From Eledone cirrhosa (taxonomy: Eukaryota): DNA of 64,000 nt. The position numbers and the translations under genes were made by a program. Positions 58 to 31,576 of this stretch are shown here, in pieces (positions within the stretch are counted from its first letter, which is position 1; each line of letters begins with the position of its first letter). The notes under the pieces are model-generated. The model did no database searches. It saw only the letters and a program-made list of their open reading frames with translations, and was not told where the DNA came from. Location of the stretch: assembly GCA_964016885.1 (NCBI GenBank), contig OZ024747.1, positions 55,428,001 to 55,492,000 on the forward strand. The letters run 5' to 3'.

Positions 58-260
58 CGAAGGAAAAGTGGTAAGGAACCAGGTGGACCATAACGCACCA
101 AAGTACTCAATACTTAGGGTAGTAGAGTCGGTAATAGGAACGAGTAGGACCCCGACGGCTGAGCTTAAGCCGTTTCGACGGCTAATTCTGGACTAAATAG
201 TCAAAGAATTAGCCGTCGAAACGGCTTGAGCTCAGCCGTCGGCGTCCTACTCGTTCCTAT
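58..260. mobile_element. Fold-back mini-element between (TA)n tracts (arms 134-195 / 198-260, plus unpaired 58-133 extension)
   Basis: ataggaacgagtaggaccccgacggctgagcttaagccgtttcgacggctaattct is followed by its near-exact reverse complement ending ...cctactcgttcctat; (TA)n on both sides. Confidence 0.75.
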
Positions 261-715
261 ATATATATATATATATATATATATATATATATATATATAT
301 TAGGTTCAGCTGGAGTAGGTGCTCTTCAAACTATTATCCTGTGATTTAAAATTGTTTCTTCCTTTGAGTACATCATCTTTAATTTTTTTTCTTTCGTTGT
401 TTTAAGTATAGAAATATAATACTTTATTGTAGTTTTTCGGCCAGGTCGGCGTCCATTATTCTATTTTTTTCCACGATGCTTTGTTACAATTTTCTATCTA
501 CGAATGTTTCTTATTCTCCAATACATCCATTCACTAATCTGGTTTAATATCACCATCTGCATCGTAGTTGCTTTTAACTTAGTCAACTCCTACTATAATC
601 ATTTAGTCCAGGTTTCCCATTTGAGGCTATTGTCCATTCTTCCGTCTTTTTTTTAGTTTCAGAGGTCCTTGAAAAGCCTTCCTTCACTGGTTAAACATTA
701 AACAATATCTGGTTT

Positions 716-1125
716 ATTGGTGGTGGTGGTGGTGTTGTTGGTGTTATTGTGTTGTTGTTGTTGGGGGGGGGGGGGTATTGCTGGTGTTGGTGGTTGTTGT
801 CGTAGTGGGGGTGGTTATGGTGTTAGTGGTTGTGGTGTTGGTGGTGTTGATGTTGATGGTGGTGGTGGTGGTGGCGTTGGTGGTGGTGGTAGTGTTGTCG
901 GTAGTGATGATGGTGTTAATGGTGTTGGCTGTGGTGGTGTTAATGGCGTCGGCGATGTCCACAGTGGTAGCCATTGATACAGTTGGAAAAATCTACTTCA
1001 TTTACGGCTGCTGGACGAGATATTATGTTTTGGTTACTGTTGTTGATTTTACTGCTATTGTTGCTACTGGTGTTGTTGTTGTTGTTGTTCTGCTGCTGCT
1101 ACTGATGGTGCTGCTGTCATTGTTT
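716..1125. repeat. Degenerate (GGT/GTT)n trinucleotide low-complexity tract
   Basis: Visible in sequence; source of poly-V/G/T pseudo-ORFs. Confidence 0.9.
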
Positions 1126-1419
1126 TCTGTACTAAGACTGTTCCACTCTTTGGACAACCGTCTAGCGGACGCAACATTTTTGAACGCCTCTTAATTTGCC
1201 CAAATAATTGAGGAACATGTTTGATAAACTAACACAAGTTTAGACCGTAAGGGCTACAGGTAAAGCTCAACTAGTTCACAAAGATACTGGTTAAATTAAC
1301 TACAAAACAGTCCTAAAATGTTGAATAAGGTGGGTTGAATAACAGTGTGAAAATAGAATAAATCAACGGAGTGATTTATTATGTTGTGTTTCGACATGAA
1401 GCAAGAAAAATAATAATAA

Positions 1420-27500: not shown

Positions 27501-30500
27501 CACGCACACACACACACACACACACACACACACACATATATATATATATATATATATATATATATATATATATATATACACATATACATATATATATATA
27601 TTATATATATATATATTATATATATATATATTATATGTATATATTATATATAAATACATTATATATACATAAACATATACGCATTATATATATATATATA
27701 TATATATATGTTTGTGTGTGTGTGTGTGTATGTATGCATATACTTGTATATTTTATATATATATACATTTTATGTATACATATATAATGTGTGTATATAT
27801 ATATATATATATATATATATATATATATATATATATATATGTGTGTGTGTGTGCGTATATATATACATATACATGTATATTTTATATATATATATCTATA
27901 TATTTAAATATATATATATATATATATATATATATATATATATATATATATATGTATATATGTATATATATATATATATATTTATAAATATATATAATGT
28001 ACATATATGTTTATATAATGTGTATATATATATTTCAGCCATAGACAGAACTATATAATCTGGTCATATTTCTTTATCAATTCATATTATGAGATTTTCT
28101 TACGGCAAGTAACTTTTGTGTGTCAGAAGACTCACTAATAAATCTACTTACATCAAACACAGAAGCCTCCAATGTAAATATGCACTGTATTTTATGTGAA
28201 CAGGGGTAGAATCACTTTTAAGTACTTGCCTATTTACTTAGTGAAATACTACGACTTTGTGTGGATTGTATTAATACATATCCATTTTGAGTTTGTAATA
28301 TTAAATATAGCCTCTCACCCATATGTATACCCATAAACACACACACATATATATATATATATATATATATACACATTCATACAGATAGATAGAGAGAGAG
28401 ATAGATAGAGAGAGAAGCACACGCACGCGCGCGTGCATTCTCATATATATATATATATATATATATATATATGTACGTATATACATGGGCATACTTAACA
28501 GGGCCCGTCACATAGATGCCTCAGCATGTGGGAATATATATATATATATATATATATATATATATATATATATATATATATATATATATATATATATATG
28601 TATATACATGTGTATGTGTGTATGAATGTTTATGTGTAATCATACGTAACTCATCATTTTGATAAATGTAATAATTGTATTTTTATATTTCATTTTATTT
28701 CTATGAATATAAATATATATATATATATATATATATATATATATATATATATATATATATATATATATATATTTATATTTATTTATATATATATATATTT
28801 ATATTTATTTATATATATATATATTTATATTTATTTATATATATATATATTTATATTTATTTATATATATATATATTTATATATATATATATATGTATAT
28901 ATATGTATATATATATATATATATATATATATATATATATATATATATATAAATATGTGTATTTTATATTTGTATGCACACATTCGTGTTTAGTGTTACC
29001 CGAACACAAATAAGCCTGTATATGTTCGGAATAGTATGATTTTCTTTATGAAGTTCTATTTCAATGAATATCAGACCGGATTTGTGAAAATGCTTGTATG
29101 TGTACTTCACTTAAGTACATCTTACTTATACATTTGTCGTATTTGCAAAAATGCATATCCGCACCACATATACATACACACACGTATGCGTGTATGTCGC
29201 TCACTTTCTCTCTCTATATATATATATATACTTTCATACACACACACACAGACACATACATACACAAACACTCACACACATATATATATATATAAACATA
29301 AATGTAGGTATATATAAAAGTATATATATATATATATATATACTTACGTATACATACGTATACATATGTATTATATATATATATAATTATATATATATAT
29401 AAAAAAATATATATATATATATACATTAATATGTATACATAAATACACATACAAATACATAAACATAAGTATATATATATATGCATATATATAAATAAAT
29501 ATGTACATATATATATATATATATATATATATATATATATATATATATATATATATATATATATATATGTTTATATATATATAGGAATGTATACATATAG
29601 GAATGTATACATATACATAAATATATTTGCAGAGTGGGGAAGTAAGAGATAGGTGAAATAATGATACAATCAGATCAAAGGCCACCACCGTGTATGTGTA
29701 GTGATGAGCTTTAAAAAATAAACGAAATAACTACACAAAAACCACACAAATTATTCAATAAACAAAAATAAAGCCAAGTCAAAATTTCCTCACAAAAAAT
29801 ACATGATCAGTAATGATAGAGCGAGGGAGAGGGAGGTGATTTAATGGGAGTGAGAGTAAGAGGAAGTGTGAGAGAGGCAAGATGGAAATGAAAGGAAAGA
29901 ATTGAAAATAATAAAAAAAATATTAACATTGAAAATGTAAAACAAAATTCATAATATATATATGTGTGGGTCTGTCCGTATATATATATATGATATATAT
30001 ATATATACATATATATATATATATATATATATATATATATACAGTATATATATATATATATAACATAATATATAAGTATATATATATATATATATATATA
30101 TATACATTTATATATAAGTATTATACATATATATATATATATATTATATATATATATATATATATATATATATTATATATATATATATATATATAATATA
30201 TATATATATATATATATATATATATATATATATATATATATATATATATATATATATATATATATATGTATAAGTATATATATATATATATATTTGTATA
30301 TAAATTTATGTATAAGTATATATATATAAGTATGTATATAGTGAGAAAGAAAGAGAGAGAGAGAGAGAGAGAGAGAGAGAGACACTACGAGAGTGGGAGG
30401 GATAGAGAGTGAGTGACTTGAAATACCTAACAAACAAACATAAGAAATTTCCATCATAGAAGGCAATAAATTTAATTACAATCTGACCACCGCTGATTTA

Positions 30501-31027
30501 CAACAGTCTTCTATATTTTGAATAGGATTTATTCGCGACGATAATGACTGATGTTATTCTCAGTCTTGGTTGGTACCGTTGTTGTTGTTGTATTTAGCTG
30601 TTTTATTTACCATTTTTGGTGGGGGGTGGGGGGGGGCAGTTTATTTCATTTGTACGGACCCCTTCCTTCACCCACCGCATATATCACCATTTTTTCTCTC
30701 GCATCTCTCGTTATATATTGACCAAATATAGAAATCGATATGCAGACATCTACTTATATAGCATATGCTTTTATAGATTTTCATGTTTGCAGATCGAGAT
30801 TAAAACAAGAGGAAGCCTCCTCTTCGTCGTCGTCAACACCATCATTATCATCAGCATCACTGTCATCATCATAGACGTCCCCACCGTCACAATCATGATT
30901 ATAGACGATTATAACATTAAAGAGTTAGATTTCAAAAGATGAGGACGCGTATGTATAATATATTATATATATATATATATATATATATATATATATATAA
31001 TATATATATATATATATATATATATAT

Positions 31028-31576
31028 TAGGGTAAACATTGATGCAATTCAATTCAAGCACTCAACGTACTTTTTCCACATGGGAGTGACGGAGTAAATA
31101 TCGAATAAGGAAAAGCGAAGTAGTTTCAGATGTTCAAGTCCTTTAATAATAATGCTGTGATATATATTTCAGTGACGACACTGGCCACACTGTTCTGTGT
31201 GCGAGTGTCGTGTCATCATCAGACAGCTTGTTACATAATAAGGTTATGTTTTCGAGGCAATCCAAATTGGATCGACATGGGAACGGATGAATTGCGTGTT
31301 TTGGGGTTTTTCATCCGCTCCCTTGTGATTCCCAATTCACCCCACCGGCCTGCGCAAGCGCATGTCCGAAGGAAGTTGACTATTAGCCACCGCAGATCCC
31401 ATGTCGATCCAATTTGGATTGCCTCGGAAACATAACCTTATTATGTAACAAGCTGTCTGATGATGACACGACACTCACACACAGAACAGTGTGGCCAGTG
31501 TCGTCACTGAAATATATATCACACCATTATTATTAAAGGACTTGAACATCTGAAACTACTTCGCTTTTCCTTATTC
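31028..31576. mobile_element. Fold-back mini-element (180-bp arms 31103-31282 / 31397-31576, 114-bp spacer)
   Basis: Arms differ at ~3 positions by eye; (TA)n on both sides; extra ~75 nt on the left arm. Confidence 0.85.
31154..31227 (-). ncRNA. Type-I hammerhead ribozyme motif (mirror copy at 31452-31525 on +)
   Basis: gctgt-CTGATGA-tgacacgacact...agtgtcgtcact-GAAA-tatata-TC-acagc; the right-arm copy has a stem I mismatch (acacc). Confidence 0.78.

Follow-up and report, generated by a model that had tools for sequence, protein, structure and literature searches.

Two tandem helices may set the unequal ends of palindromic PLE insertions in TA repeats of Eledone cirrhosa

Introduction

The reverse transcriptases (RTs) of Penelope-like elements (PLEs) are the closest relatives of telomerase. 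How these elements come by their tandem and inverted repeats has been named an open question, and an inverted copy, a one-sided tail and (TA)n targeting are among their published traits (PMC8557442). The stretch of Eledone cirrhosa DNA analysed here (64,000 nucleotides, contig OZ024747.1, positions 55,428,001 to 55,492,000; hereafter the window) poses that question in a compact form, as it holds palindromes of very different size in which only one arm continues into a tail. The architecture as such, as an earlier sequence-only reading described it, is already in print. What fixes the two unequal ends, and how one insertion acquires both, is the subject of this analysis.

Results

Five palindromes in the window

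Self-BLAST of the window recovered all five inverted repeats (P1–P5) where the sequence-only reading had placed them. All five survive microsatellite masking, and base shuffles yielded none in 10 of 10 trials. Arm-versus-arm alignment gave the following.

P1, 134-190/205-260: 54 matches, 2 substitutions
P2, 12848-15926/16892-19975: 3076 matches, 2 substitutions, 7 gap columns
P3, 24185-24376/24383-24570: 182 matches, 2 substitutions, 12 gap columns
P4, 31103-31282/31397-31576: 177 of 180 positions matching
P5, 61445-62591/63883-65030: 1141 matches, 4 substitutions

The arms of P1 measure ~57 nt rather than ~62 bp. The tails of P1, P2, P3 and P4 are 77, 134, 40 and 75 nt long, close to the earlier 76, 132, 40 and 75; their edges are blurred by 1-3 nt because TA fits on both sides. 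P5 was expected to overrun the window and does carry on in the next stretch of the contig, with arms of ~1.15 kb, a short end at window-equivalent position 65029 and an 88-nt tail on the left arm (61355-61442), which the sequence-only reading had been unable to assign. Every end of P1–P5 meets (TA)n, as had been noted for P1–P4. The palindromes represent five separate multi-copy PLE families (F1–F5, respectively), with the following features.

58-133, minus strand: P1/F1 tail of ~77 nt, bounded by the two start sites; its long end (58) meets (TA)n
101-128, minus: F1 helix copy 1, within the P1 tail (strict motif scan)
134-190, minus: P1 long-end arm, the 3' half of a hammerhead-like fold as read from sequence
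205-260, plus: P1 short-end arm, into (TA)n at 258-299
12848-15926, minus: P2/F2 short-end arm, microsatellite-rich 3' UTR/pLTR; predicted hammerhead core at 13047-12920
15927-16891, minus: P2 spacer, part of the short-end arm; ORF end and 44-nt junction filler
16892-19975, plus: P2 long-end arm; predicted hammerhead core at 19776-19903
19976-20108, plus: P2 tail of ~134 nt with (TA)n at its long end; contains helix copy 1 at 19979-20063
24146-24184, minus: P3/F3 tail of 40 nt, Neptune-like, without a Hydra-type helix
24185-24376, minus: P3 long-end arm
24383-24570, plus: P3 short-end arm; the centre is a family hotspot at a GATC palindrome
31028-31102, minus: P4/F4 tail of 75 nt, helix copy 1 at 31095-31056
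31103-31396, minus: P4 long-end arm, paired part 31103-31282; predicted hammerhead core at 31222-31166
31397-31576, plus: P4 short-end arm; predicted hammerhead core at 31457-31513
61355-61442, minus: P5/F5 tail of 88 nt, helix copy 1 at 61435-61412
61443-63882, minus: P5 long-end arm, paired part 61443-62591; predicted hammerhead core at 61541-61499
63883-64000, plus: beginning of the P5 short-end arm, which ends at window-equivalent 65029, into (TA)n

The P1 long-end arm retains the core GAAA, helix III and the cleavage triplet of its hammerhead, the 5' half being lost by truncation. In the P2 spacer, a GIY-YIG endonuclease segment (16212-16847) is identical to residues 601-812 of the full F2 protein. 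The unpaired 5' continuation of the P4 long-end arm spans 31283-31396, F4 being a family of non-coding 1.3-kb units, and that of P5 encodes the RT thumb and the endonuclease end of the ORF (62872-63882).

Palindromes of this kind might be produced during library construction or assembly, and the arms of young copies, up to 99.8% identical, would fit such an origin, as would one F2 locus with an internal duplication that may be misassembled. Against it stand family-specific fixed ends at ~150 loci, diverged arms in older families, identical ends in other organisms and a family, F9, without any inverted copy. Both ends of the P1 family also occur in independent raw reads: in three runs, 2,499-3,035 reads per run cross from P1 sequence to TA repeat at position 134, the short end, and 2,270-3,705 do so at 60 and 68, the long end, and strand-switch joints are present; the runs stem from a different study under the same species label and inform on the P1 family rather than on the single locus. 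An artefactual origin is scarcely credible. All five palindromes are genuine PLE insertions into TA repeats. A MITE or foldback DNA transposon was considered as well and is ruled out, since the arms derive from the 3' ends of RT elements cut short on their 5' side, and spans range from 0.1 to 23 kb instead of being fixed.

Family identity

The families show pLTR-forming partial tandem copies, an inverted 5'-truncated copy and a tail at one end, by which EN+ PLEs are recognised, and TA lies on both flanks of 122 of 146 insertions with one short and one long end across all five families. By their protein motifs, F1, F2 and F5 are assigned to the Hydra clade. A single ORF joins RT and GIY-YIG endonuclease; it is intact in F2 (812 aa), and the ORFs of F5 and F1 were found, with frameshifts, in family copies. 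RWR and DKT motifs are present in F2 and F5, and in F1 as read from the DNA of one decayed copy. The F2 and F5 proteins have a CxCX5C linker, lack CCHH and place CxxC and CxH around a conserved E and N. The F2 unit is 6,091 bp long with a 3.3-kb 3' UTR and occurs in at least 56 near-identical full-length copies in the genome; the F5 unit is ~3.7 kb. F4 is a non-coding family with Hydra-type ends, taken as non-autonomous because the one copy scanned contains no ORF of 120 aa or more. The motifs of F3, with an open frame of ~780 aa, are Neptune-like: a C-terminal endonuclease, a CX4CX2C linker, a CCHH-type GIY-YIG domain and DKG.

A pattern search predicts a hammerhead core with helices in F2, F4 and F5, cleavage likewise being a prediction; the 5' half is degenerate in the F1 copies examined, and the last 900 nt of F3 gave no canonical core. 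Helix III is palindromic in F2, F4, F5, F6 and F8. Rfam returned no match for the hammerhead or helix regions and, for the whole window, only below-threshold, hairpin-driven miRNA matches among the 150 of 296 matches listed; Pfam returned no family for either endonuclease fragment.

Nearly every classed insertion pairs one short end with one long end

Each family has two fixed ends, short and long, and the typical insertion has one of each. Among 169 outward-facing pairs, both ends could be classed in 151, and 146 of these combine short with long, which bears out the proposal that arm asymmetry is consistent among family members. The exceptions are three short+short and two long+long pairs, one of the latter an internal copy. 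With tail-free queries only, the count is 112 of 115 (P ~1e-29 against chance pairing). A sixth family found later, F6, adds five short+long pairs, no same-type pair and three with one unclassed end. F3 keeps the rule in 36 of 37 cases despite its absent Hydra helix; the single mechanism first proposed for all palindromes thus holds as an end rule and does not extend to one shared helix. Nor is the tail an extra piece, as it had been taken to be: it belongs to the element itself, whose internal tandem copies continue through it. Ends and target have 1-4 nt of TA-like sequence in common.

No description of strict end pairing was found in open-licence PMC and bioRxiv papers. The near-strict short/long asymmetry goes beyond the published PLE traits.

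A tandem helix motif marks both ends in Hydra-type families

In Hydra-type families, a bulged helix, NCTCY...RTNGAGN'NCT, occurs in two tandem copies between hammerhead and start codon, and each of the two ends precedes one of these copies, helix 1 or helix 2, by 4-9 nt. Helix-to-helix spacing agrees with tail length (75-134 nt in the families here). A strict scan of the window finds matches solely in the four Hydra-type tails. Whether the short end keeps a fixed distance from the hammerhead cleavage site had been put forward as a test, and it does not: that site lies 25, 68, 63 and 56 nt from helix 1 in F1, F2, F4 and F5. Because this distance varies and the end-to-helix offset stays at 4-9 nt, the short end is fixed to the helix and not to the hammerhead. 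In F3, only a small CTC/GAG hairpin follows the long end, and the Hydra motif is absent.

Genome-wide, the copy-2 pattern has 7,207 matches against 55 for a reversed control. Where the 3' side has A, its partner is T in 4,355 cases and C in 240. In an unconstrained test, the inner pair is Watson-Crick in 56 of 63 cases (shuffle mean 33; 0 of 5,000 shuffles as high); the outer pair occurs as A-U, G-C and U-A. Distant metagenome relatives (33-44% protein identity) provided 46 loci with sufficient upstream DNA: 22 contain two copies of the motif, eight one and 16 none, the last partly reflecting a misplaced or truncated match start, against 0 of 46 on the reverse strand and 3 of 137 ORF windows. 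Read by eye, ~12 of the 14 pLTR ends that were legible in these relatives fall immediately upstream of helix 1 or 2; two loci, L351 and L363, have off-site ends. Local folding yields the helix at most sites, not all, and the motif is predicted to fold as an RNA hairpin. No description of it was found in open-licence PMC and bioRxiv papers; the words "stem-loop" and "hairpin" are absent from the main text of PMC8557442, and the consensus sequences of that study themselves contain the motif.

The covariation is also compatible with a single-stranded DNA hairpin, and the motif could be read as DNA: the endonuclease would recognise it in an intermediate and trim or resolve one of the arms at helix 1, so that only the opposite arm keeps the tail. 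PMC8557442 ascribes the tail to endonuclease resolution, and PMC11167929 recalls that a Drosophila tail is needed for endonuclease recognition. However, offset and TA microhomology are equal at both ends, as two primings predict; internal tandem copies retain both sites uncut; and tail ends in the anole element coincide with RT start sites in vitro (PMC11167929). Recognition at the DNA level is, on this evidence, rather improbable.

Both arms derive from one source but extend independently

Arms agree at segregating sites in F5 (24 of 24) and F2 (11 of 11), and in the F2 insertions examined they have private variants in common. F1 arms often differ at one site, also carried by the query. In F3, ~16 of 28 scorable pairs have arms that differ in an 8-nt slippage deletion, a disagreement that may be ascertainment, the query itself having carried the deletion, and that also fits two templates; F3 arms resemble each other no more closely than arms paired at random (506 of 2,000 permutations).

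Among 143 scored insertions, the short-end, tail-less arm reaches further 5' in 45, four of which are scoring errors in tiny F1 copies, the long-end arm in 33 and neither in 65. In F2, the tail-less arm extends further than the tailed one in 12 of 16 insertions, P2 included, and three F2 insertions have extra tandem units on the tail-less arm. The two arms vary in length independently, and they meet at the centre through an overlap of 0-3 nt or a short filler. The shared private variants, together with either arm reaching further 5', argue that both arms were primed separately from one source. Arm-length polarity was tried as a sign of priming order and rejected, as there is none across families (45/33/65).

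These data separate the two mechanisms first proposed. The first, with priming from either end of a cut TA tract, agrees with them. The other, in which one cDNA folds on its own 3' end, is copied back and halts before the tail, fails as in many insertions it is the tail-less arm that extends further 5', and a copy cannot contain what its template is missing, such as the extra F2 tandem units. The equal-reach insertions, mostly short F1 and F3 copies with fixed, partly self-complementary centres, would suit it. Fold-back is refuted as a general route and could survive for the shortest copies only; as the explanation of the palindromes it is most improbable.

Alternatively, two RNAs of one source locus might serve as templates, with copying begun at helix 1 on the first and at helix 2 on the second; the protein pair, or a pairing of hammerheads through palindromic helix III, would keep them together. 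Strand displacement would then be unnecessary, and the palindromic helix III, the F3 disagreement over the slippage deletion and the missing canonical core of one-armed F9 would be accommodated; hammerhead dimers have been proposed for PLEs (PMC4209133). Yet F2 arms share private variants despite the many near-identical F2 copies, F3 palindromes form without a canonical core in the last 900 nt, and free RNAs offer no simple reason for the 146 of 151. Two templates are thus possible though unlikely.

One-armed relatives

The non-autonomous family F9 has no end at helix 1, no canonical hammerhead core and an inverted copy in none of 30 loci. F9 and its relatives retain a well-formed helix 1 yet never end there. 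Absent TA microhomology as the sole cause of this skipping fits F9 and does not fit all of the relatives, some of which have TA in the priming window. F9 raw reads, at low depth, contain no strand-switch joints among the reads listed, with 137 loose ends besides. Non-autonomous parasites may, it appears, abandon site 1 and insert one-armed.

Discussion

The preferred reading, to which we assign a probability of roughly 0.6, is that each palindrome is one PLE insertion in which two copies of the element's protein, each seated on one of the tandem helices, start reverse transcription on opposite strands of a single cut target. The helices would act as RNA, each binding one copy of a protein that works as a pair, and the two strands of the cut TA tract would provide the primers for the two enzyme copies. 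One RNA would give both cDNAs, the one begun at helix 2 displacing the first; PLE RTs are not known to have RNase H. Host repair would join both cDNA 3' ends and fill in the second strands, and the length of the tail would simply reflect how far apart the helices lie. The Neptune-like family would follow an equal route with different signals.

More generally, Hydra-clade PLEs may possess an RNA recognition element, so far undescribed and present in two copies, on which an RT–endonuclease pair docks and which sets each start a fixed few bases upstream, so that one RNA is copied twice from the two strands of a break, the palindrome arises by design and parasites can be one-armed; we regard the odds of this broader proposal as even. 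Such fixed setting of start sites can be likened to the telomerase template boundary. Two helix copies would explain how PLEs make lopsided palindromes, and the origin of the repeats becomes directly testable through a small covarying motif from which both start sites can be predicted clade-wide. The motif can also be used to locate and delimit Hydra-type elements and the non-coding parasites of these (one form alone has the 7,207 matches given above), and implies thousands of potential hairpin loci in this genome.

LINE-1 twin priming likewise makes two cDNAs from one RNA on both target strands, with a microhomology joint. In LINE-1, the internal site used by the second primer varies, and the two resulting parts are free of overlap; in the PLEs described here, neighbouring fixed starts lead to the same stretch being copied twice, giving a palindrome. 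Twin priming of the LINE-1 type is ruled out, as the arms duplicate one stretch and both sites are fixed.

Published Hydra clade EN+ PLEs (Craig et al. 2021, PMC8557442) have RW(K/R), DKT, the CxCX5C linker and the lack of CCHH in common with the families described here, as well as the endonuclease CxxC and CxH, a pLTR hammerhead (predicted in F2, F4 and F5), (TA)n, an inverted 5'-truncated copy and a tail at one end. Their published length of <3 kb, descriptive rather than defining, is exceeded by F2 (6.1 kb) and F5 (~3.7 kb), and their tails are 30-40 nt against 55-134 nt here. F3 resembles the Neptune clade in DKG, the CX4CX2C linker, the CCHH-type GIY-YIG domain, the (TA)n target and a 40-nt tail, and differs in having no canonical hammerhead core in its last 900 nt; its class rests on motifs.

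The closest experimental parallel is the Poseidon PLE of the green anole, which cuts and extends both strands at an AT-rich target, has two internal starts that bound the tail, uses uncut RNA as template and has a protein predicted to dimerise (Frangieh et al. 2024, PMC11167929). That study does not address inverted arms or per-insertion end pairing, and its start site did not differ between strands, which counts against the pairing model. Poseidon starts lie inside the ORF, at a single AC-rich stem loop, and are said to be without target homology, whereas the starts described here are found in the 5' UTR, one upstream of each helix, and share 1-4 nt of TA microhomology with the target.

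Palindromes and Their Families

The window covers positions 55428001–55492000 of its contig. All five inverted repeats picked out by the sequence-only reading are present, far beyond chance (none in 10 shuffles), and the tails that it placed on one arm were recovered at 77 (P1), 134 (P2), 40 (P3), and 75 nt (P4). The fifth, seen there to run off the window, was traced into the adjoining stretch; P5 has arms of 1.15 kb and a tail of 88 nt. In another study's raw reads, both ends of the P1 family run into TA repeat, a family-level check. The chance of the palindromes being an artefact is practically negligible.

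Each palindrome belongs to a separate family of Penelope-like retroelements (PLEs; F1–F5, numbered as the palindromes), with 1,046–2,521 first-look candidates apiece, which are not copy numbers. F2 has a 6.1-kb unit, an intact ORF of 812 aa, and at least 56 copies at 99–100% identity. F2 and F5 carry Hydra-clade marks as listed in PMC8557442 (RWR, DKT, CxCX5C, CxxC, and CxH, with CCHH absent); F1 has a Hydra-like RT, read in one decayed copy. The F4 unit measures 1.3 kb and has no ORF. F3 is classed as Neptune-like on its DKG motif, its CX4CX2C linker, and the CCHH of its endonuclease. Other features of the region, including a palindrome of the further family F6, are as follows.

12848–16208: F2 3′ UTR, ~3.3 kb, microsatellite-rich, far exceeding that of published Hydra elements
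20369–21448: LINE-like RT ORF, C-terminal fragment, directly past the P2 TA tract, without a Pfam match; a near-identical copy lies close to another F2 insertion
22443–22492: 50-bp inverted repeat (88%), long TA tracts absent from its flanks
37746–40022, minus strand: open frame of 758 aa with an RVT_1 domain, an unrelated retroelement
61028–61336: older F5-like arm adjoining P5, 87% to 61435–61601, its short-site end running into TA; no partner arm seen
1495, 2285, 32114, 41990, 43066, 47260, 52534, 57474: ~190-bp dispersed SINE-like repeat, both orientations, 80–95% alike
71032–71518 (window-equivalent, just past the window; L031): F6 short+long palindrome, and also an F1 short end

Nearly All Palindromes Pair a Short with a Long End

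Each family has two fixed ends, short and long, the tail being the stretch between them. All retrieved DNA was merged (155 segments, 985 kb) and each family end classed; only top-scoring matches were sampled, so young copies dominate. Of the 169 pairs facing outward, 18 contained an end left unclassed; 5 of those ends resemble the short ends of a sister subfamily to F1. Among the remaining 151, 146 joined a short to a long end, bearing out the consistent arm asymmetry proposed from sequence; the exceptions were three short+short and two long+long pairs, one of the latter an internal copy. A further 55 ends, terminal or unclassed, were partnerless within the retrieved DNA. Tail sequence was part of two queries, in full for F4 and by its first base for F2; with the tail-free queries alone, the rule held in 112/115 pairs. 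TA lay at both flanks of 122 of the 146 short+long pairs.

F9, a 580-bp non-coding tandem family lacking a canonical hammerhead core, was searched with a tail-free query. The long end occurred at 30/30 loci (29 insertions, three possibly duplicates), the short end and an inverted copy at 0/30; related loci had an inverted copy in 0/20. In F9, disuse of site 1 goes together with absence of the palindrome. In a large group of 580–620 bp non-coding tandem families (L285:1300–2190, L261–L289, L290–L319), the twin helix described below is present, the hammerhead is decayed, and insertions are one-armed; some of these families form arrays of at least 15 units.

A Predicted Twin Helix Follows the Two Ends

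In internal tandem copies the tail continues as element sequence, and the same motif follows both ends: N-C-T-C-Y, a variable loop, and R-T-N-G-A-G-N′-N-C-T, where the pairs N:N′ and Y:R flank a 2-nt bulge. The two copies, helix 1 and helix 2, are predicted RNA hairpins between the hammerhead and the start codon; F9 keeps both. Measured from the helix, the final base that still matches is at −4 to −9 in the majority of F1, F2, F4, F5, F6, and F9 ends and at −2, −3, 0, or −10 to −13 in a few. F6, discovered via the motif, has both ends at the predicted positions. As an alternative to the paired priming set out below, the endonuclease might trim the ends at the DNA level, which we regard as distinctly unlikely.

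A strict scan of the window gave matches confined to the four Hydra-type tails. Across the 3.0-Gb genome, where a few large families dominate the counts, the G:C form had 7,207 matches versus 55 for a reversed control, and T:A exceeded C:A pairing by 4,355 to 240. An Rfam search with the helix gave no match. The Neptune-like F3 has a small CTC/GAG hairpin from 8 nt past its long end (L400 and related loci) that echoes the Hydra helix core, with nothing comparable downstream of its short end.

A profile from 20 relatives retrieved 78 metagenome loci; 56 reaching the ORF start were examined, 46 of them with at least 150 nt upstream. Two helix copies were present in 22/46, one in 8/46, and none upstream of the ORF in 16/46 (controls, 0/46 and 3/137). 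In the 22 two-copy loci, the copies are spaced by 55–83 nt and the second ends 15–51 nt ahead of the ORF. With pairing left unconstrained, the inner pair is Watson–Crick at 56/63 sites plus 4 G–U (shuffle mean 33) and the outer pair at 53/63 versus 49, in a shuffle that takes no account of relatedness. Among ends readable by eye, the pLTR stops immediately before helix 1 in L325, 332, 347, 348, 378, 381, and probably 374, before helix 2 in L323, 331, 336, 344, 356, and 371, and off the helix in L351 and L363. By eye, the motif is also present in published Hydra consensus sequences of a sea cucumber and a coral.

Origin of the Arms

The two arms of an insertion share a source in the Hydra-type families. 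They agree at three segregating sites in 24/24 F5 insertions and at one in 11/11 F2 insertions, variants common to both F2 arms, three of them in P2, are absent from every other insertion sampled, and F4 and F1 arm pairs are also more alike than random pairs. F3 arms are no more similar than random pairs, which counts against a single source; they frequently differ by an 8-nt slippage deletion, which the query itself had. Two RNAs originating from one locus would be a rather unlikely alternative to the single RNA of the reading given below.

The tail-less arm reached further 5′ in 45 pairs and the tailed arm in 33, with 65 equal; extra whole units sat on the tail-less arm in three insertions of F2. 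Copy-back from a single cDNA, the fold-back option of the sequence-only reading, is therefore excluded as a general route and is highly improbable as the explanation. F2 arm junctions mostly show 0–3 nt of overlap or gap, at times 10–45 nt. Short palindromes have fixed centres, within hammerhead helix II ~60 nt from the short end in F1 and at a GATC palindrome ~190 nt in for F3; the centres may be hotspots for RT stops or for annealing.

The best reading, at a probability of roughly 0.6, is paired priming, with which the other option raised earlier, priming at both ends of a cut TA tract, agrees. Two predicted protein copies, one per helix, would bind one RNA as a dimer, both target strands would be nicked within (TA)n, and the two cDNAs copied from that RNA would be joined mid-palindrome, with displacement and repair as further presumed parts. 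What the data themselves establish is the end positions, their offsets from the helices, the covariation of the helix pairs, and the common source of the arms.

Comparison with Known PLEs

In PMC8557442, inverted 5′-truncated copies, (TA)n targeting, and a 30–40 bp tail, frequently at a single end, are PLE traits whose origin is called unresolved; its main text makes no mention of a stem-loop or hairpin. PMC11167929 reports that two internal RT start sites delimit the tail and that both strands are cut and extended, and it predicts a dimer. The palindrome architecture is therefore known PLE anatomy. In open-licence PMC and bioRxiv literature, we found no description of strict end pairing or a clade-wide twin helix, and together these turn the origin of PLE structures into a testable question.
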